This document shows, one piece after another, positions 32,144 to 41,931 of a stretch of 64,000 nucleotides of DNA; the stretch's first letter is position 1; every line of letters starts with the position of its first letter. Where the stretch lies: contig JALGVJ010000005.1 of the NCBI GenBank assembly GCA_029838195.1, positions 32,001 through 96,000 on the forward strand. Direction: 5' to 3'. This DNA is from Promethearchaeota archaeon. GTDB lineage: Archaea > Asgardarchaeota > Lokiarchaeia > Sigyniarchaeales > SOKP01. The notes under the pieces are model-generated. The model did not search any database and was not told the origin of the DNA. It worked only from the letters and a program-made list of their open reading frames with translations. Made by a program: the position numbers and the translations under genes.

Positions 32144-32485
32144 GTGATGGTAGATAGAATCATCAAGCAATCAGAAGTAGATTCTTTTTTGATTCGGATT
32201 AAAAATATTTTTCCAAATTGTATTGCAGGCATTATATGTGACCATCATGGGTTTCCTATTTCTTCGCAAATTGCTGATAAAGTGAACATGAAAGAAAATG
32301 AATTAGCCTTATTAGCAATTTCAAATAGGATTTCTTTAAATAAAAAATTGAAAATAAGTAAAATCAAGTTAGATTTAGATGAGGAAAAAAAAATTAAATT
32401 ATTATTGTTAATAGAAGGTACGAATAAGAACCTCTGTGGAATAGCGGATCTTCGAAACATTGTAAAAAATCAGTTAATTTTTTAA
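32144..32485 (+). CDS. Roadblock/LC7-like protein
   Basis: AGIICDHHGFPISS motif. Confidence 0.6.
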   Translation: MMVDRIIKQSEVDSFLIRIKNIFPNCIAGIICDHHGFPISSQIADKVNMKENELALLAISNRISLNKKLKISKIKLDLDEEKKIKLLLLIEGTNKNLCGIADLRNIVKNQLIF

Positions 32486-32648
32486 ATTTTTCGAAACAAG
32501 CAAATTTTTTTATGAATTTTTTTTTTTTTAATAATAGAGTATAAGAATATTAATGCTTTTTTAAAAATTTTTTTACGAGAAGTAATCGAGAGTCGAACGA
32601 GTGAATCTCGAACCAATTAATAAAACAACTATAAAAGGAGCTTGATAA

Positions 32649-33125
32649 ATGGATTCTTCACGAGATTTTCATGAAGATGAGAAGGAATTAAAAGAAATTT
32701 TACGCACGATCGTTAATAGCACGGCCGGCATTAAATATTCCTTGATTATTGATGATACAGGATTAACCCTCTTAAGTCATTCAAAATTTAATTTGACTAA
32801 TGATGAGATGATTTCTGTGGAAAAAATTGGAGCAATAGGGGGCGCCGTGTTCATTGCAGGAGAAGAGCAAGGAGAGGTTTTAGGGTATGGTCATATCAAC
32901 ATGCAGATTACTGAATATAATAAAGGGATGATATTTTCAGTAAAAGCTGGAAAAGGCATTCTCTGCCTTGCTACGGATAAGAACGTGAACATTGGATATG
33001 TTAGGGCGATTACTAAAAAATTTGCTCCAAAAATAAAAAAAGTACTTGAAACTTATTTAGAAGAGGACAGTTCTAAAGGGAATAAATTAAAAGAATTATT
33101 AGATTCAGATTCTATTTTGATTTGA
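32649..33125 (+). CDS. Roadblock/LC7 domain protein
   Basis: SLIIDDTGL, IGAIGGAVF, EYNKGMIF and VNIGYVR motifs. Confidence 0.85.
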   Translation: MDSSRDFHEDEKELKEILRTIVNSTAGIKYSLIIDDTGLTLLSHSKFNLTNDEMISVEKIGAIGGAVFIAGEEQGEVLGYGHINMQITEYNKGMIFSVKAGKGILCLATDKNVNIGYVRAITKKFAPKIKKVLETYLEEDSSKGNKLKELLDSDSILI

Positions 33126-33533: not shown

Positions 33534-34000
33534 TTAACTCGGTTTCTTCTTTTTTGAACGTCTTGAAAAATAAAATTTGAAATAAAAAAACAATCCAAGA
33601 TAGACGCAGAACTCCGAACCCATGTACAGTGTATTTTTAACTATTTTTAAATGATCTTGAGGAACATTTTCGGGATTCATCATCGTTAAAAATACTTTTT
33701 TATAGTCGGCATTTGATACAATCCAATGAGCCATGAAAGTTTCGTCATTCACGGTCCTTAGTCCAAGTGCTTTATAATTTTTTACTATAATTTCATATAC
33801 ACCGGTATTAAGTTTCAGGGTTCCACCATATTCTTGAAATTTATTATTAAGCAGATCACTAATCCCATGAATACCACAGGATGGATTCCAAATTCCTTTC
33901 ACTGACACCACATTCCACATGAACGCTAAATGCAGCATTGACATTATGGGTGATTGGGTGCCTTGAGATCCTAAAAGCCTTTTTAAAGAATCATAATCAT
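33534..34000 (-). pseudogene. Internal fragment of a phytoene-desaturase-like FAD oxidoreductase
   Basis: PSCGIHGISDLL...GG, IVSNAD and FCVYLG; lacks both the N-terminal Rossmann motif and the C-terminus. Confidence 0.7.
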
Positions 34001-34029
34001 CGTAATTCTCTTTCTGGATTTAAATCCAC

Positions 34030-34245
34030 TCACATGAAGATTTCTTCAATTTGATCCAAGGTAATTAATTTTTCTTCTACTAGTTGTCTAATGAACTTAT
34101 AGGCAGCACATTCATATTCCTTTTCCCAGTATTCTTGGTCTTCTTTATAAAAATTGCATTTATGACAGACGCGATTAATTAATTGTTTATTTAACGGAGA
34201 GATGTCATTTTCTGTTCTTAAATAGACATGTTTTTTTTCCACCAT
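34030..34245 (-). CDS. Small Cys-containing hypothetical protein
   Basis: VCHKCNFY...ECAAY; AGGTGA upstream; directly downstream of the radical SAM gene. Confidence 0.7.
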   Translation of the reverse strand: MVEKKHVYLRTENDISPLNKQLINRVCHKCNFYKEDQEYWEKEYECAAYKFIRQLVEEKLITLDQIEEIFM

Positions 34246-34286
34246 TTATTTTTCTCACCTTTTTTTCATTATTAAGTTCTTTTAAA

Positions 34287-35569
34287 TTAAGGATTTTTTT
34301 CGTTTTTAGGAAGACGTCCATATCGATAACACATGTAAATATCCTCCCCTAACACGTCGCCTGTTTCAACATAAGCTCGATATCTACATCCACCTCTACA
34401 TTGATTTAAAAACTCACAATTAATTTCAAAACATTTCAGATCTTTAATATTCCAATTTAATCTTTCTTGTATTTTCCTCCAGCTCTGTTTTACCCCTAAT
34501 TCAAACACGTTTCCTAAATCATTTTCACTGAAGAATCCACATTTCGAAATATTCCCTAAAACATCTATAGCCATGATATTTGGCCCACATGCTAAATCCT
34601 TAAAGGAGGTTTCTGACTCGTAAAAAACACCCCATCCATAAGACTTTAAGACTTCTGCTCCTTTTTTACCGGAAATTGCATATTTTTCACGAATGTCTTT
34701 CGGAATGGATTCGTCATAGGTGGGGATGTCTAATATCCAATTTTTAATAGGCCCTAAATTTTTAATGAATTGTTTAAGGGCATTAAATTCATTTACATTG
34801 CGAGCATGAATCATGGTATTTATGGTAACATGAATATCGTGGTGTAATAAAAGTTTAATTCCTTCAATAGTATCTTGGAAACATTTAACATTTCTAAATT
34901 CATCATGCGTATCTTTTAATCCATCTAAGCTTACAAAGACTTCAAAATAATTTTCCTTCAGTAGAGGTAATAGTTCTTTTTTTTGTTTAATTAATGTACC
35001 GTTCGTTAACAAAACTTTTTGTAAAGGAACTTTTTTGAGAAATAGAAGTAATTGTTTCAAGTTTCCATATAAAAATGGTTCTCCTCCCGTCAGAATTATT
35101 CTTAACCCGTGTAATTCATAAAAATCCCTAATTAATTTTATTAAATCTTCTATTGCTATATCTTGTTGCTTCTTATTCGTGAGATAACAATGCTTGCATT
35201 GCAAATTACATTTCTCGGTGATATTAATCATTAATTTCGTTAGATATGGTTCTTTAAAAATATTCTTTTCCGGTAAATTAAGATGCTCCTTTGATACCAT
35301 GGCCTCGTTAGTCATGGGAAAAGGGGAGGATTGAATGATACCAAGTTCTATGAAATTCTTGAATGCATCTTGAATTTCTTTTCTTTTTTCGGGAAGATAT
35401 TCATCCAATATTTCCTGAAAAGTTTTTTTCCCTCAATTTTTTTTAAAATTGCAAAAGCTTCTTCATCAATAAGATAGGATTCATCATTTTTTAAATCAAA
35501 AAGGTTGATTTCTTGGTATTTTCTAAGCGTGATGTGGTGTGGAAGATATGGATATAGATTAAGATTCAT
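34287..35569 (-). CDS. PqqD/RRE + radical SAM + SPASM protein, split by a -1 frameshift in an A7 run
   Basis: ORFs 35348-35569 and 34287-35408 join at GGA AAA AAA C(TT) to read IDEEAFAILKKIEGKKTFQEILDEY...FIELGII. Has CNLQCKHC and SPASM motif C...C..NCEFLNQCRGGC. Confidence 0.8.
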
Positions 35570-35946
35570 TGATTAAACATAAAAATGCCATGTATAAAAA
35601 GATTCAGCTGATAAATAAAAAACTTATTAAAAAAGATGATTTCATCATGTAAATTCTAGAATTTCTTATTAAAATTCAATTTTCGGGATTGCCGAGTCAT
35701 TAAAATAAAAAAAAGAGTAAGAAAGATTTGACTGCGGGTATAGATTTCTTCCCTATTAAGATTAACCGAGAATATATGGCTTTAATTGCTTTCATTGAGT
35801 TAAAGAAGAATCTTTGCTTGTCTTTATTTGATAAAAATGTTAAGCTCGGAAAATTCGATAAAATTAAAAACTTTTAATACATCCTTTTTTTATTAATTTT
35901 TTAATTATTAAAATTCTATTAAAATATTAATGGACATGCGAAGCTC

Positions 35947-36726
35947 ATGAGTGAACAGGATAATGGTATTGAAAAGAGAGATAATAAACGCTCTCAAATG
36001 AAAATCAATATTATTTTACTACTTTTTCTCGGTCTCATCATAATTGTCACTATTCTATCGGCTCTTTATAAAAATATCGGAGAATTCTTTAACTTGACAA
36101 ATTGGTTTGACTCTGAAACTCTTGAAGCCATACCAATTTATAGTGCTATAGGATTTACGGTACTTGTCTGCTTCATAGGAGCGATTATACCCATTCCGAT
36201 CCCTTATCCTCTTCCCATTACTGCCTTTACAGCTACTTGGTTGAATTCTAATGAGAATGCATGGTTCTTAATTACCCTATTAGTATTATTTGCCGCACTC
36301 TCCAATACATTAGGAGACATGTTAGATTGGTTTATAGGTCGAGGCGCTCAAGGATTGTTGAGTAAAGAATCCCCTGAATTACAAAATCCATGGAGTCAAT
36401 TGATTCTAAGAAAACCTAAGATTATTCCCCCCATAATTTTATTATTTGGTGCGACTCCTCTTCCCGAATCGATTCTCTTTACTACTTTGGGGTTTTTGAA
36501 ATATAATAAAAAAAAAGTATTAATATATTGTTTTATCGGAAAAATTATCATGATGGTATCTTTTGCTCTTTTAGGAATTGTGTCTTTAGGGTTCTTATCC
36601 CTTTTTTCCGAAGAATCTAGCCCCAATGGTTGGATAAGCGGCATTATCACGCTTTATATTCTCTGGGGAATCATCGTATTAATGGTGAAATTCAAACCTA
36701 AATTGAAAGAAGAAAAGGAGGGGTAG
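35947..36726 (+). CDS. VTT/DedA-like membrane protein
   Basis: Multiple TM segments; LGDMLDWFIGRG, ATPLPE and IGKI motifs. Confidence 0.75.
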   Translation: MSEQDNGIEKRDNKRSQMKINIILLLFLGLIIIVTILSALYKNIGEFFNLTNWFDSETLEAIPIYSAIGFTVLVCFIGAIIPIPIPYPLPITAFTATWLNSNENAWFLITLLVLFAALSNTLGDMLDWFIGRGAQGLLSKESPELQNPWSQLILRKPKIIPPIILLFGATPLPESILFTTLGFLKYNKKKVLIYCFIGKIIMMVSFALLGIVSLGFLSLFSEESSPNGWISGIITLYILWGIIVLMVKFKPKLKEEKEG

Positions 36727-36860
36727 AAATACTTTCTTTTTAAATTATTATTTATTAAAATGTTGACACCATGTCTCCTTTTTTTTAATTTTAAAATATA
36801 ATCTTAAAATTTTATTTAAATCACCCCATTAATTGCATAAAGAATAAACTTTTCTGAAAA

Positions 36861-37211
36861 ATGAGATTAACTGAAGATGCTATAAAAGTCATTCAAGAAC
36901 AGCACGAAGAAATCTTAAAAGAGGATGAATCGAACACCCCTGCTCTCTTAATATATCAATATTACACGAGATCATGATCCAGAACGTCTTGCACCATCGT
37001 GGTTCGACTATTTCCAAAGAGCCAAATCTTGGCCCATGAAGATAAAATAAAAAAATGGACTGAAATAGAAGTAGGTGATAAAAAAATCGAAGTTTTCTTA
37101 GAAAAAACTCTTCTCGGTGAATTAAAAAACCCTGAAGATTTCATCCTCGATGGTCAGATCTGGAAAATGGTCAAATGGAGTCGAAGTTATTTATTCTTGA
37201 AAAATAAATAA
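36861..37211 (+). CDS. Candidate selenoprotein (116 aa, UGA at codon 39), weakly HesB-like
   Basis: The ATG at 36861 is in frame with ORF 36999-37211 and there is a single TGA at 36975-36977 (YYTRS-U-SRTSC). A SECIS-like hairpin follows the stop. Confidence 0.7.
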
Positions 37212-37220
37212 AAATAGAAA

Positions 37221-37262
37221 AAAGATGACCTAATCTTAAAAAACCTAGAAGATTAGTGATTT
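37221..37262 (+). promoter_or_regulatory. Eukaryote-type SECIS element candidate
   Basis: ATGAC-CTAATCTT-AAAAAACCTAG-AAGATTAG-TGAT: an AUGA/GA non-Watson-Crick quartet, a perfect 8-bp helix and an A-rich apical loop. Confidence 0.65.
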
Positions 37263-37344
37263 ACGGCTGCAACCGTTTTTCCTCATTCCTTTTTTTTCTC
37301 GTGCTTTTTCATTGCCCATTGAACTCTCTCATCTCTTTAAAATG

Positions 37345-37533
37345 CTATTTTCCTACCATGGAACCTAAATCATTTTTTTTCATTGATACCTCTACTTTTT
37401 CCAATCTATCTAACGCTTCAATAATGTGCTCACTTGATAAATAACAAGGAAAATGTTTCTTCAATGCTGATTTATCATTATTTTTTAGATATTCGGTAAT
37501 TTGATCCCAAATTTCCTCTTCTGATCTTTTCAT
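37345..37533 (-). CDS. Small hypothetical protein
   Basis: 62-aa ORF with plausible helical composition. Confidence 0.5.
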   Translation of the reverse strand: MKRSEEEIWDQITEYLKNNDKSALKKHFPCYLSSEHIIEALDRLEKVEVSMKKNDLGSMVGK

Positions 37534-37745
37534 GGTCTTTTTAGAGGTTTAATTATTTTATTTTCCACTAAACTCATTACATGTGTAAATCTTATAAACT
37601 ACTAAATTTCTTCCGATCAACTTTTTTAGTCTTTCTTTAATCTCGTAATTTTCTAAAGAATTTTTAATTAAATCAATCCCAGCTTTTTCATATTTTCATT
37701 TCATCTTTTTTTTACATGAATTTGTCGTGCTTAACTTTTCTAAAA

Positions 37746-38042
37746 TCATTTTTGAAAAAGAAGATCAATATCATTTCTTTTCGTTTTCTTCTTTATGAAT
37801 AAATCATACAAACCAATATACCAGCACAAAACATCATGCGGTGTTTGGGAAAAGAAAATTTTCTCCGCCACCTTGCTTATCAGGTCGTCAGAAGGATGTG
37901 TGAAATTTTGCTCCACATATAATTGACGCTCTGCTAATAACCAACATAATATGTCGTAAGGATGTTTCTTTTCCCATATATAATACGCTGCAACGCTAAT
38001 CTCCTCATCGGAAATGTCATGCTTTAACTTCATTTCTCGCAC
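37746..38042 (-). CDS. Small protein with a duplicated DUF2934-like motif
   Basis: SDEEISVAAYYIWEK..YDILCW.LAE and SDDLISKVAEKIF...HDVLCW. Confidence 0.7.
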   Translation of the reverse strand: MREMKLKHDISDEEISVAAYYIWEKKHPYDILCWLLAERQLYVEQNFTHPSDDLISKVAEKIFFSQTPHDVLCWYIGLYDLFIKKKTKRNDIDLLFQK

Positions 38043-38227
38043 CCCACCCCTTGCCTTTTTTTAATAATCTTCATTTTTACATAATTCCATGTCTTAATAA
38101 TTTATCTCTCTAATAAAAGGGATACAACACGAAATATATATTTTTATTTATTTTGAATGTTTTAAGAACAAATGAAATAAATTAAAATTCGATAATTTCA
38201 TTATTTTAGTTAAAAAAATGGTCGTCA

Positions 38228-38440
38228 ATGATAATCATGGATGATAAAGTAGAGGAGAAAGACCTTGTAGATAATAAAAACTTAAATAAAAAAAATCAAG
38301 TTCCAAAGGAATGCGATCACGATTTTATTCATGAGGATTTATCCCAGATTTTTATTACTTTTAATAGCTCGAACGAATATGATTATCTCTTTCAGTCAAG
38401 GAATGCAATGTTTATTCTGAACATGATTAAACTTGTTTGA
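38228..38440 (+). CDS. Hypothetical protein
   Basis: ORF only; no recognisable motif. Confidence 0.3.
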   Translation: MIIMDDKVEEKDLVDNKNLNKKNQVPKECDHDFIHEDLSQIFITFNSSNEYDYLFQSRNAMFILNMIKLV

Positions 38441-38614
38441 ATGAAAGAACTTCCCTCATATCAACATTAAACCTTTTTAAAATATTATTAGACCAAAATC
38501 ATTTCTAATTTAAAGAAAGTAAGTATTTCTTTACTTTTATTCAAGATAAAAATATGAAAAAAAGAGAGTTTTAATTATTATTAGAAAAAAAATAGAAGAT
38601 TAGCCAGGTTTTTC

Positions 38615-38722
38615 TTAGCACGCATCTCCTCCACACTTACAGGAGAGACTAATGCATGCATCTCCACCGCATTTACAGCTTACGGCTTCAATCTTTTTCT
38701 TTTCTTTTTTTACGATTTTCAT
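38615..38722 (-). CDS. 35-aa Cys-rich peptide with a duplicated SCKCGGDAC core (candidate RiPP precursor or metal-binding peptide)
   Basis: MKIVKKEKKKIEAVSCKCGGDACISLSCKCGGDAC*; the two repeats differ only by synonymous codon changes. Confidence 0.85.
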   Translation of the reverse strand: MKIVKKEKKKIEAVSCKCGGDACISLSCKCGGDAC

Positions 38723-38949
38723 TTTTTTTACCTTTTTTAGTTTTGTTTTAAATTTATTAGAACAAATTAATTGAATTTGTTATACTAACTGATTAGGTAA
38801 TATATAAATTCATTGGTTATAGAGGGTAGTATGAGTGTTTTACAAAATGGTGTGAATTAATGGGTTTGTTATAAAAAGGATTTAAGGAGTATGAGGGATT
38901 TCAAGAATAATATGAATGCAAGTAAAAAGGGGGTGAAAGATCCGATGGA

Positions 38950-39717
38950 TTAAGGTGGGGAGGATTTTTTAAAGGATTGGAATAATTCTTCGATTTGTTC
39001 ATAGGAGCCTAGAAGATTTTTAATTTTGGGGTTGCTTAATCCTTTGATGGCATCGCCTTCATAGAATTTTTTACCATCTTTTAAGATAAAGACTTTTTGA
39101 GCCCATTTTTCGACAAAAAAAAGGTGGTGGGTCGTGAATAAGATGGTCATTTTTTCTTGAGTGCGCAAGGTTTCGATAATTTTGATGTGATTATGAATGG
39201 ATTGAAAATCTAGATTAGCAAACGGTTCATCGAGGATGAGCAATTTAGGCTTAAGCACGAGCAAGCCAGCGAGGGCGGCTCTTTTTTTTTGCCCCCAAGA
39301 GAGATTAAAGGGGGATTCATTTTTATAGTGTAAGAGATTTACGGCTTTTAAAGCCCATTCCGTGCGTTTTTGGACCTCCTCTTCGGGTAATTTTAGATTT
39401 CGCGCGCCAAATGCCACGTCTTCGGCGATAGTAGGGGCGAAGAGTTGGTCATCGGGGTTTTGGAATAAGAATCCGATTTGTTGGCGTATTTTCCAGAGTT
39501 GTTTTCGATTTCTTGTTAAAGTTTTTCCAAATATCTTAATGGTCCCGGATTTAGGTTTTAATAATCCGACCATGAGTCGAAGTAAAGTAGATTTTCCGGC
39601 ACCATTATTTCCGAGTAGGGCATAAATTGATTCTTGTTCGATTTGCAAGCTGATATTTTCAAGAGAAAATCCTGAGTTATATTTAAAACTAAGGTTTTCA
39701 ATTTCTACTGCAAGAAT
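38950..39717 (-). CDS. cbiO: ECF Co/Ni transporter ATPase
   Basis: GNNGAGKST, FQNPDDQL, LSWGQKKR and DEP motifs. The frame extends upstream of the track start (ILAVEIENLSFKY); the true start is uncertain. Confidence 0.88.
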   Translation of the reverse strand: MLAVEIENLSFKYNSGFSLENISLQIEQESIYALLGNNGAGKSTLLRLMVGLLKPKSGTIKIFGKTLTRNRKQLWKIRQQIGFLFQNPDDQLFAPTIAEDVAFGARNLKLPEEEVQKRTEWALKAVNLLHYKNESPFNLSWGQKKRAALAGLLVLKPKLLILDEPFANLDFQSIHNHIKIIETLRTQEKMTILFTTHHLFFVEKWAQKVFILKDGKKFYEGDAIKGLSNPKIKNLLGSYEQIEELFQSFKKSSPP

Positions 39718-40511
39718 AGGGCATAAACCTCCTGATAGAATGCTTTCAAGTCAAGGAAAAAAAGAAAAGAGATCACGAGGAGAAGGAATCCTAATAACGT
39801 TAATGCGTCCCAAATTTTCAATTTTTTTTTAGAAAAGGTGATTTCACCGGAAAAGCCCCGCATTTTAAGGCTTTCATAAAGACGCTCGCTACGGTCCATG
39901 TTGATGATAATGCTTTTTGCCATAATATAAGCGTGGGTTTTCAATTTTGACCAATACGATGTAATTTTTTTCCCCCGTAATTCTTGAGCCTCGAGAATTT
40001 TTTTATTAGAATCAGCCAATATGGGGAGATAATGAAGCATGATCACGAGGCTTCCAATGAAGAAAGAAGGAATGACTTTAGCCTTGGTGAGAGCTTCGAT
40101 AAATTCCGAATAGGTGAGAGAAGACATAAACGCCATGAAAATGAAAATCGCCCCAAAAATCCTCAAGAAGAGAAGGAGTGCTAAGATGATTCCTTCTTGA
40201 TAAATGATAAGGGTGATGCCGAAGAAAAGGCGATACGCAACTGTATTCCCTATATAGAGGGGAAGAAAAATGGTGATGAGCAGGATGAAAGGGAGAACTT
40301 TTAAGATCCGCTTTAAGATTCTACTTAATTTTAATTTAGCGATTATGGAAATTAGAAAAGTAGAGAGAATTAGGGTGAAAATGAGAAAAATGTCATTTAC
40401 AAGTAAAAAAGGCACTACAAAAATAAACGGTAAAAGGAACCGGATTAGAGGATGAATTGTAGACAAAATTGTGGATTCGTGCTCATGTCTGAAGGGTAAT
40501 ACCGAGTCCAT
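39705..40511 (-). CDS. cbiQ: ECF transporter T component
   Basis: Multiple TM segments; AQELRG and SLKMRG motifs. Confidence 0.88.
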   Translation of the reverse strand: MDSVLPFRHEHESTILSTIHPLIRFLLPFIFVVPFLLVNDIFLIFTLILSTFLISIIAKLKLSRILKRILKVLPFILLITIFLPLYIGNTVAYRLFFGITLIIYQEGIILALLLFLRIFGAIFIFMAFMSSLTYSEFIEALTKAKVIPSFFIGSLVIMLHYLPILADSNKKILEAQELRGKKITSYWSKLKTHAYIMAKSIIINMDRSERLYESLKMRGFSGEITFSKKKLKIWDALTLLGFLLLVISFLFFLDLKAFYQEVYALFLQ

Positions 40512-40936
40512 TTTCTTTCTATTTTTTTGTTTTTTTATGCAGACCTTAATTTCAAGATGAAAAAATTTAGAATGCTTAAAAAGAATTTATTTATAAAAAA
40601 TTTGCGAGATTTCGGATCATACTTGATAAATTATATTTTTAAAACTTGAACCAGCTTTAATTTCAATAAGGCAGAATTATAATCTCATATAACGATTCAA
40701 AATGGCTTTCTTTAAAAATTGATTTCGGATTACCATATTTCTTTAGATTTAGGTTTTTTTTTAGCTAATTAAGGAAATTTAATTCATTATTTAACCTTTT
40801 TTAATTATTTTATTGCTCTTCATACTTGGTTATAATATAGTAATACTTTTAAATAATTTATAATTTATAATTTATAATACTAACTTTCAAAATAGTAATA
40901 TCTTAAAAATAAAATATAAAAATAAATGATAAAAAA

Positions 40937-41608
40937 ATGCACATACCAGATGGACTTTTAGATCCCTTCACAATTGTTATTTTGTGGGCCACGAGCATTA
41001 TAATGATGGTTTTTGGATTTAAAAAAATCAAGAAAATTTTTGAAAGCGAAGATTCAGAGAAAATGATACCTTACATTGGCGTATTAGCTGCGGTAATTTT
41101 CGCCTTTCAATTTGTAAATTATCCCGTACCAGGAGGAACTTCCGGGCATCTCGTCGGAGGCACATTAGTTGCCGTTATACTGGGGCCATGGGCAGCAATT
41201 CTCGTTCTGTTCTTAGTATTGGTCGTTCAAAGCTTATTTGGTGATGGGGGCATTACGGCTTTAGGAGCGAATACTTTTAACATGGGGATCATTGGGGGCA
41301 TGGTAGGTTTTTATATCGTCAAATTAGTAATGCATGGATTAAATAAGACCAATTGGAGCAAAGAATTAAGAATGGCAATTGGAACAGCCATAGGGTCTTA
41401 CATTGGAATAGTATTAGCCGCCTTGAGTTGTGGAATCGAAATTGGAATAGGAGGGATCATTCCGATGAATATTGCTATAATGGCCATGGTTTATTGGCAT
41501 TTATTAATTGGCATTGGCGAAGCGGTAATTTCTGCATTGATTATATTTTATATTTATAAAGCGAAGCCGTCTTTGATCATGACAGAGCGGCAATTGGGGG
41601 TAATTTAA
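40937..41608 (+). CDS. cbiM: ECF Co/Ni S component
   Basis: N-terminal MHIPDG, GGTSGHLVGG and GDGGITALGAN. Confidence 0.93.
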   Translation: MHIPDGLLDPFTIVILWATSIIMMVFGFKKIKKIFESEDSEKMIPYIGVLAAVIFAFQFVNYPVPGGTSGHLVGGTLVAVILGPWAAILVLFLVLVVQSLFGDGGITALGANTFNMGIIGGMVGFYIVKLVMHGLNKTNWSKELRMAIGTAIGSYIGIVLAALSCGIEIGIGGIIPMNIAIMAMVYWHLLIGIGEAVISALIIFYIYKAKPSLIMTERQLGVI

Positions 41609-41610
41609 GG

Positions 41611-41931
41611 ATGCAACCGTTAATTCGATATAAAGGGGTTATTTTAACCATAGCTATAACCCTCATGGTGCTTCTATTGATGATTGCAATCGGTTTTTCT
41701 ATTGGGATTTTATCTGACAATCCCGATGGCTTGGAAAGAGTATTGATTGATGCTAAAGGGGAACATTGGTTAGAAAATTTACCCTCACCTTGGGAGCCCA
41801 TCTTAGGAGGAATCGAAAATGAGTACATTGCAGGCGTCTTGGGAGTGATTTTAACCTTGGTAATCATCATAGGGATATTCTATCTTATTATCATCTTGAA
41901 AAAGAAGAAAGAAGAGAACGATAATGAATAA
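41611..41931 (+). CDS. PDGLE-domain (NikN/CbiN-like) membrane protein
   Basis: PDGLE motif between two TM segments. Confidence 0.88.
   Translation: MQPLIRYKGVILTIAITLMVLLLMIAIGFSIGILSDNPDGLERVLIDAKGEHWLENLPSPWEPILGGIENEYIAGVLGVILTLVIIIGIFYLIIILKKKKEENDNE

Follow-up and report, generated by a model that had tools for sequence, protein, structure and literature searches.

The window analysed here is a 64,000-nucleotide stretch of a Promethearchaeota archaeon of the Lokiarchaeia (GenBank assembly GCA_029838195.1, contig JALGVJ010000005.1, positions 32,001 to 96,000 of the forward strand). On its minus strand it carries a very short cysteine-rich peptide gene, a gene for a radical S-adenosylmethionine (SAM) enzyme with a SPASM domain, and a gene for a small three-cysteine protein. 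A first-pass annotation had drawn attention to an unannotated open reading frame (ORF) of 35 amino acids (aa) with two protein-identical cores differing in five of nine codons, and this is what the sequence reads: translation of 38722-38615 gives MKIVKKEKKKIEAV-SCKCGGDAC-ISL-SCKCGGDAC followed by a stop codon, and the two nine-codon cores encode the same protein with six base differences in five codons (AGC/TCC, AAA/AAG, TGC/TGT, GGT/GGA and GCA/GCG), every one of them synonymous. The radical SAM/SPASM gene that it placed about 3 kb downstream on the same strand is also there (35569-34287), and a small cysteine protein follows it (34245-34030). The three genes are as follows.

38615-38722, minus strand: precursor-type peptide gene of 35 aa, with a 15-aa basic leader and two SCKCGGDAC cores linked by ISL, read from the sequence

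34287-35569, minus strand: radical SAM/SPASM maturase gene with an N-terminal RiPP recognition element (RRE), interrupted by a frameshift, with the N part at 35569-35348 and the C part at 35408-34287; Pfam Radical_SAM match at 7.9e-20

33997-34245, minus strand: three-cysteine helper gene (CxxCxFY...EC), with an in-frame TGA at 34030-34032 and ten conserved codons (VDLNPERELR) after it

This is the make-up of a ribosomally synthesised and post-translationally modified peptide (RiPP) system, with a short leader-plus-core precursor encoded together with a modifying enzyme, the two lying 3 kb apart in the window. We think it rather probable that the 35-aa ORF is translated and under selection and belongs, as a divergent member with two cores, to a family of tiny peptides that serve an RRE-radical SAM maturase.

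The peptide is conserved within Lokiarchaeia. Sixty relatives were searched in six frames for homologous small ORFs and 10 kb on each side of every homologue was then examined. The homologous ORFs read MKIVKKEK-x5-CKCGGxC, with the unit present two or three times, and orthologous genes show 13-21 synonymous and 0-3 non-synonymous codon differences, in line with the protein-level selection previously read from the two cores. Because it is conserved in ~20 related genomes with mostly synonymous codon change, the 35-codon ORF is by its substitution pattern a selected gene, far beyond chance. That it could be a chance open frame and no gene at all might be argued from its having only 35 codons, from its being uncalled by gene finders, and from the yield of a protein-database search (with a query led by a 43-aa sequence) of only four called homologues among 5.8 billion proteins, all of them in Promethearchaeota; however, the mostly synonymous change, the conserved promoter architecture and the occurrence with the enzyme across phyla refute this notion, to which we give practically no credence. 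Gene callers overlook the peptide gene almost always.

Linkage of the peptide to the enzyme is equally regular. Synteny analysis with tblastn places the peptide upstream of the orthologous radical SAM gene on the same strand, with the small cysteine protein next, in eight of nine testable Lokiarchaeial loci, and in five of these loci (G024, G017, G030, G004 and G018) the peptide and enzyme genes are directly adjacent, only 100-800 bp apart. When all neighbouring ORFs in the Lokiarchaeial loci are clustered, the radical SAM enzyme and the small cysteine helper are the sole recurring proteins. In a 400-genome sample of the phylum, 135 genomes belong to the Lokiarchaeial family of the window; 24 of these encode the helper and 20 the peptide, ~110 have neither, and all 20 of the peptide-bearing genomes also carry the helper gene, which serves as the marker of the cassette.

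The first-pass annotation had spoken of a candidate Asgard RiPP system, but the system is not confined to Asgard archaea. Enzyme orthologues with more than 50% identity are all from Promethearchaeota, and the next tier, with 28-38% identity over the full length, comes from archaea and bacteria outside Asgard (Nitrospirota, Methanosarcinales, Methanobacteriota, Geoglobus, Mnemosynella, Dehalococcoidia, Thermoleophilia, Rokubacteria, Actinomycetota and Desulfobacterales). A 20-21-aa ORF of the form M-x-I-x-K-x8-CKCxxxC, preceded by a strong GGAGG ribosome-binding site (for example MTIKKVSKRVSMTCKCKSSC), adjoins the orthologous enzyme gene in 23 of 32 of these bacterial and archaeal outgroup loci; in the other nine there is no peptide within 3 kb, relaxed patterns included. 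The co-occurrence of peptide homologues and radical SAM gene that the annotation proposed as a check is therefore observed at all three levels, in the Lokiarchaeial loci, in the family genomes by way of the cassette marker, and in the outgroups. Altogether the trio of peptide, enzyme and helper spans Lokiarchaeia and other archaea as well as at least six bacterial phyla.

Alignment of the peptides gives a simple family rule of a 13-residue basic leader, C-[K]-C-x3-C and a stop codon. The C-terminal module is nearly invariant across phyla and two domains of life; its three cysteines are invariant, and the lysine between the first and second of them is the sole other conserved residue. The Asp of the window's cores is G, S or K in relatives, and the cross-link to Asp that had been mentioned is unlikely to be the chemistry of the family. 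The number of cores within Asgard varies, with one in G006, G184 and G180, two in G022 and the window, and three in others, and multi-core versions with 1-aa spacers exist.

The third component is the small protein. What the first-pass annotation listed as a small cysteine protein following the enzyme is present, and to this can be added that it is, on comparison of the loci, a conserved third component of the system and that in the window it is truncated by TGA. It is ~81 aa in relatives and a 71-aa ORF (34245-34030) in the window, and has the motif C-x2-C-x-F-[YFW]...E-C with three invariant cysteines, in one or two modules. Identity within Lokiarchaeia is 65-100%, and the helper is found in most outgroup loci; a full-library profile search gave 207 clusters at 50% identity. 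In two bacterial loci, L036 (2707-4068) and L074 (2773-4110), it is fused to the N-terminus of the enzyme, and on this Rosetta-stone evidence the two would work together. No convincing solved fold was found for it (no Foldseek match at E <= 0.001; best VIA-align Z 3.6), and in the ESM Atlas its sole match was its own family, which has no name.

Intact relatives of the maturase are 419-425 aa long. The CX3CX2C radical SAM motif and seven SPASM cysteines are invariant among orthologues (C121/C125/C128 and C326, C342, C378, C383, C389, C393 and C412 respectively, in P0109 numbering) and are kept in the window's reading frames; seven SPASM cysteines match the requirement for the two auxiliary clusters of sactipeptide and ranthipeptide maturases. 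A structural model of an intact orthologue (predicted local distance difference test score, pLDDT, 88; predicted template modelling score, pTM, 0.89) contains an N-terminal domain, a radical SAM barrel and a SPASM domain. The N-terminal domain has three strands (13-17, 21-25 and 30-34) and three helices (36-43, 51-55 and 60-75) and, with the enzyme profile, CteB and SuiB align in their N-terminal regions, which supports the PqqD-like RRE predicted for this part of the protein. By sequence the nearest solved proteins are SkfB (best, 1.6e-27), CteB, TigE and anSME, and by fold over the full length they are SuiB (best, 1.5e-15) and CteB. The enzyme does not fall within any of the curated maturase families CteB/SCIFF, PapB, AlbA, SkfB or StsB, with best NCBIfam scores of 60-115 bits and cut-offs of 300-850; the PqqE model gives 59.7 bits (cut-off 381) and the MftC model 75-99 bits (cut-off 265).

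Co-folding of the leader with the RRE, which the annotation had put forward as a check, supports their association. The G024 enzyme and its own peptide were co-folded in three runs with three 4Fe-4S clusters and SAM, and the interaction score from aligned errors (ipSAE) was 0.79 in all three runs, as against 0.00 for the best control; the score mark is one reached by 58 of 80 solved complexes and by 2 of 110 mismatched pairs. At least 33% of contacts recur between runs, and the pLDDT of the partner is only 41-48. Confident contacts join peptide residues 1-12 to enzyme residues 22, 30-41 and 65-76; confident placement is limited to the leader, and the position of the core is not fixed by the model. 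As modelled, this interface is the classical beta3/alpha3 groove of an RRE, with the leader docking as an extra strand, and the result may be taken as likeness to the solved RRE-leader complexes of relatives, not as proof.

The family consists of tiny peptides with a 13-aa basic leader (M-K-I-x-K-K...) and one to three C-K-C-x3-C modules. We propose that the leader would dock as an additional strand on beta3/alpha3 of the RRE, and that the enzyme would then abstract hydrogen and modify the cysteine module. The earlier proposal that the cysteine-repeat peptide is the substrate of the maturase gains support from the gene linkage and the modelled docking, and the chemistry stays conjectural. By analogy with CteB and SkfB, intramolecular thioether bridges such as those of sactipeptides and ranthipeptides are our leading guess for this chemistry, and a different reaction at cysteine, thiooxazole formation for instance, is possible. 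The product would most likely stay within the cell, since in ~40 loci the cassette includes no gene for a protease, an exporter or immunity.

Comparison with characterised systems shows that the kind is known, radical-SAM/SPASM peptide maturation, and that this particular family is not catalogued: peptide and helper are without any Pfam or NCBIfam model, and no publication on this peptide, enzyme and helper turned up in the literature searched. The closest parallel is the clostridial ranthipeptide system SCIFF/CteA-CteB (PDB 5WGG, 5WHY), which similarly pairs a short cysteine-rich precursor with a single RRE, radical SAM and SPASM maturase, has a core cassette without protease or exporter, is wide in anaerobes, and supplies in CteB one of the best sequence and fold matches. 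However, the present enzyme is under the cut-off of every NCBIfam SCIFF/CteB-type model, its precursor has 20 aa and one CKCx3C (one to three in Asgard) where SCIFF has six cysteines in 45 residues, and there are an additional obligatory three-cysteine helper and an operator link, described below, to a nickel/cobalt (Ni/Co) importer. SkfB, AlbA (sactipeptide) and SuiB (streptide) (PDB 6EFN, 5V1Q-T) share the domain architecture and the leader-on-RRE mode (here modelled), but are only 15-18% identical to the present enzyme and belong to operons with exporters, proteases or immunity genes, with longer cores and defined acceptors, none of which is seen here. The features of the uncatalogued family are the 20-aa precursor, the obligatory helper, the two-domain spread, the Asgard multi-core expansion and the metal-importer operator link. 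For the conversion of peptide cysteines to metal-chelating groups by a SPASM-type radical SAM enzyme there is precedent in SbtM, which makes thio(seleno)oxazoles on cysteine- and selenocysteine-containing peptides, and multinuclear non-heme iron-dependent oxidative (MNIO) enzymes make copper-binding thiooxazole peptides (PMC12538549); the present enzyme matches SbtM only weakly and in the core domain (65 bits against a cut-off of 350).

Two other products of such an enzyme have to be considered. One is an antimicrobial of the sactipeptide or ranthipeptide type, secreted as a bacteriocin or archaeocin, for which a cysteine-rich precursor beside an RRE-radical SAM-SPASM enzyme, with CteB and SkfB among its nearest solved relatives, is just the expected architecture; but leader peptidase, ATP-binding cassette (ABC) exporter and immunity gene are in none of the ~40 loci, the core is near-invariant across phyla, unlike fast-evolving toxins, and the operator is common to a metal importer, so that we hold this to be very improbable. 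The other is a peptide-derived redox or catalytic cofactor, carried or used by the helper. Pyrroloquinoline quinone (PQQ; PqqA/D/E) and mycofactocin (MftA/B/C) resemble the present system in having a 20-30-aa precursor, a SPASM enzyme and a small accessory protein, and in a product that stays intracellular; here the tiny precursor has a C-terminal module almost invariant over two domains, protease and exporter are absent from the cassette, the related SPASM enzymes include PqqE and MftC, and the dedicated small partner is tightly conserved within Lokiarchaeia. In contrast to those systems, the RRE here is fused to the enzyme, the accessory is a cysteine protein with a best fold match of Z 3.6, and the core residues are cysteines where theirs are Glu/Tyr or Val-Tyr. 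No dependent oxidoreductase recurs in the neighbourhood, the scores with the PqqE and MftC models are far under the cut-offs, and the multi-core versions look more like a binding module in several copies than like one cofactor to be cut out. A cofactor is consequently an improbable product, somewhat less so than a secreted toxin.

The metal link that we favour for the modified peptide comes from the DNA upstream of the peptide gene, where the following features are found.

38885-38919, minus strand: operator ahead of the peptide gene, a direct repeat of TCATATT (38909-38915) and TCATACT (38888-38894) 21 bp apart; 19.8 bits with a position weight matrix (PWM), genome rank 6

38950-40511, minus strand: cbiO (38950-39648) and cbiQ (39705-40511) of an energy-coupling factor (ECF) transporter, immediately upstream of the peptide gene

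40816-40850, plus strand: a further operator of this type, in the promoter of cbiM, with TCATACT at 40820 and TAATACT 21 bp on; PWM 21.3 bits, genome rank 4

40937-41931, plus strand: gene for a CbiM/NikM-type S component (40937-41608), with a small membrane protein as its partner (41611-41931; weak PDGLE match), divergent from cbiQ and cbiO

A third TCATACT lies near the peptide-gene operator at 38828-38834. The PWM was built from relatives, with the window excluded, and used to scan the entire window genome (G000), a 4.5-Mb metagenome-assembled genome, where ranks 1-3 go to sites within long ORFs, which were discounted as chance matches. Every Lokiarchaeial peptide gene is preceded by one or two TCATAYT direct-repeat pairs with a spacing of exactly 21 bp, upstream of a TATA-like box, and the same pair stands ahead of cbiM in G024 and G017. 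A same-strand site of 12-37 bits is present ~70-125 bp ahead of the start codon in 16 of 20 further cbiM promoters of the family, and the cbiM-promoter operator is present also in genomes without the cassette. Across five whole genomes the exact 28-bp operator pattern has 21 matches, compared with 11 for the reversed control; five of the 21 are in cbiM promoters, seven in peptide promoters, and one is before a Peripla_BP_2 and FecCD importer. That the operator is common to the peptide and cbiM promoters is shown by these sequence matches. The Peripla_BP_2 case is in G016 (C31; L161:1501-3028), where the genes of the Peripla_BP_2 binding protein and of a FecCD permease follow TCATACT-N14-TCATACT; a second importer, for metal chelates or cobalamin, may therefore belong to the regulon.

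The E. coli NikR operator is GTATGA-N16-TCATAC (PMC7055735), and the half-site TCATAC is identical to that of the present operator. As in NikR-controlled nickel uptake, there would be co-regulation with a metal importer, and G000 encodes two NikR_C matches; unlike it, the sites here are mostly direct repeats with a 21-bp period and not the palindrome of E. coli. Most sites are direct repeats, but that in the cbiM promoter of G185 (L143), TTCATACT-N12-AGTATGAA, is perfectly inverted, and its half-sites equal those of E. coli NikR in the opposite arrangement. The shared operator would be metal-responsive. CbiM occurs in 92 of 135 family genomes, cassette-lacking genera included, and since its presence does not track the cassette, the connection of peptide and importer is regulatory and not one of co-occurrence. 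In the first-pass annotation a metallothionein-like chelator linked to the adjacent cbiMNQO genes had been offered as an alternative to a RiPP; this is borne out in part, the link being a regulatory one through the shared operator, and it is compatible with the RiPP reading instead of competing with it.

Because the peptide gene shares its operator with the promoter of a CbiMNQO-type Ni/Co importer, the product would most likely be a Ni/Co-handling peptide, for binding, buffering or hand-off, made together with the importer. More tentatively, and with considerable doubt, we extend this to the whole family: the trio may make a peptide-derived Ni/Co-binding molecule (an intracellular chaperone, buffer or cofactor) in anaerobes of both domains, with the peptide enlarged in Lokiarchaeia to two or three modules and the trio co-induced with the importer by a NikR-like regulator.

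The cassette of the window genome is itself damaged, with lesions in three consecutive genes that are all intact in the sister genome G001. Besides the helper TGA given above they comprise the following.

35423-35429, minus strand: A7 run at the maturase frameshift; A8, or a -1 slip on G GGA AAA AAA C, would give ...IEGKKTFQEILDEY..., as in relatives

33591-33992, minus strand: remnant of a flavin adenine dinucleotide (FAD) amine-oxidase-type gene, residues ~182-330 of a 503-519-aa protein

The frameshift in the enzyme gene, of which the first-pass annotation was aware, is thus located to this A7 run. Relatives' maturases read ...ING(K/R)x(T/S)... uninterrupted, with neither A-run nor shift, and a hairpin downstream of the run is modest (-15.8 kcal/mol, z -2.4). 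Programmed -1 frameshifting at the slippery heptamer was considered and set aside; with no A-run or shift in relatives, a recent mutation or assembly error is simpler. The helper TGA (34032-34030) corresponds to CGT (Arg) in the sister genome and to Arg or Lys in relatives, which rules out selenocysteine at this codon, and in the ten codons past it there are five synonymous and no non-synonymous differences from the sister genome. The FAD amine-oxidase-type gene is intact in G001 and G018. Because three lesions hit three consecutive genes, one of them by a large deletion, they point to real and recent decay and not to assembly error; by sequence, the local system would be either recently inactivated or dependent on slippage or read-through.

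This damage gives the strongest rival reading, in which the window's peptide works unmodified as a metallothionein-like Ni/Co binder or buffer, co-expressed with CbiMNQO, and the radical-SAM operon is dead. The frameshift, nonsense codon and gene remnant all favour it, as does the lack of a second maturase copy in the genome, and the peptide is intact, selected and atypical in its spacing, adjoins cbiO and carries the cbiM-type operator. CxC motifs are classical thiolate metal sites, and metallothioneins similarly have repeated CxC...C thiolate modules, but the peptide here is always with a modifying enzyme: no sampled genome keeps it without the cassette, the damaged cassette of the window being a possible exception. 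Moreover the lesions look very recent, the differences past the TGA being synonymous and the radical SAM frame otherwise open, and the peptide would therefore have evolved beside a working enzyme; the lesions may also be assembly errors or be bypassed by slippage. Four family members have no Pfam or NCBIfam match at E <= 1, to a metallothionein family or any other. We regard an unmodified metal binder as unlikely, if the least unlikely of the alternatives to a peptide matured by the radical SAM enzyme.

Several observations weigh against this preferred reading of a matured peptide. The sole copy of the maturase is frameshifted, there being no second orthologue in the window genome, and the helper is truncated, so that the window's peptide may act unmodified or not at all. 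The peptide is also an outlier of its family, with a leader of 15 aa where the family has 13, CKCx4C where the family has CKCx3C, and two cores, these being held identical in protein despite the outlier form. No acceptor residue in the core besides the lysine is conserved, which lends no support to a specific Cys-to-Asp or Cys-to-Thr link, and the proposed cysteine-directed chemistry is drawn by analogy. The family genomes are related and so are not independent samples, though containment of the peptide within helper-bearing genomes is complete. As to metal, CbiM is common in genomes without the cassette, no metal gene recurs next to outgroup cassettes, and the proposed link would run through a shared DNA motif.

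If the reading is correct, many anaerobes (Asgard archaea, methanogens, Archaeoglobi, Nitrospirota, Desulfobacterota, Chloroflexota and Actinomycetota) would have a three-gene pathway, so far overlooked, in which a ribosomal peptide of 20 residues becomes a modified cysteine module with a link to Ni/Co supply. Nickel and cobalt go into hydrogenases, CO dehydrogenase/acetyl-CoA synthase and corrinoid enzymes, which stand at the core of energy metabolism in anaerobes. The system offers a defined archaeal operator and regulon as well as a natural series of one-, two- and three-core precursors, and the window genome would be a snapshot of a peptide gene outlasting its decaying maturation genes.

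Neighbouring genes in the outgroup loci show enrichment of rubrerythrin, GlxRS, TPR and GHMP kinase only, and no transporter or protease recurs there. Nitrospirota cassettes are repeatedly flanked by rubrerythrin genes (L032, L035, L037, L039, L048, L057 and L062), and that of L032 also by a ferredoxin and a flavodiiron protein; such neighbours may hint at an oxidative-stress or redox context.

The remaining features around the peptide gene in the window are putative expression signals and an inserted block common to the sister genome G001.

38801-38808, minus strand: putative TATA-like box TTTATATA upstream of the peptide gene, read from the sequence

38585-38592, minus strand: T8 run, putative archaeal-type terminator signal, 23 nt past the peptide stop codon

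35947-38440: inserted block between the peptide and maturase genes

35947-36726, plus strand: VTT/DedA-like membrane protein, in the block

36861-37211, plus strand: TGA-containing ORF, in the block

37345-37533, minus strand: 62-aa ORF, in the block

37746-38042, minus strand: DUF2934 protein, in the block

Relatives have TTTAAATA or TTTAAAAA at a position comparable to that of the TATA-like box. Four unrelated genes intervene, two of them on the opposite strand, so that the window genome does not have peptide and enzyme in a single operon. Two Roadblock/LC7-MAPKK1_Int-like small proteins are encoded near the locus (32144-33125, plus strand) and Ras-family small GTPase genes are present in related loci (L021:5800-6336); both belong to the 'eukaryotic signature' genes typical of Asgard archaea and have no relation to the peptide system. 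The 116-codon ORF at 36861-37211 in the inserted block is a selenoprotein candidate, with an in-frame TGA at 36975-36977 and a cysteine five residues on. Its counterpart in G001 (L026:15824-16168, minus strand) has TGA at the same position, and the flanks are conserved on both sides (YYTRS-TGA-SRTSC in the window and YFMRS-TGA-SGTSC in G001).

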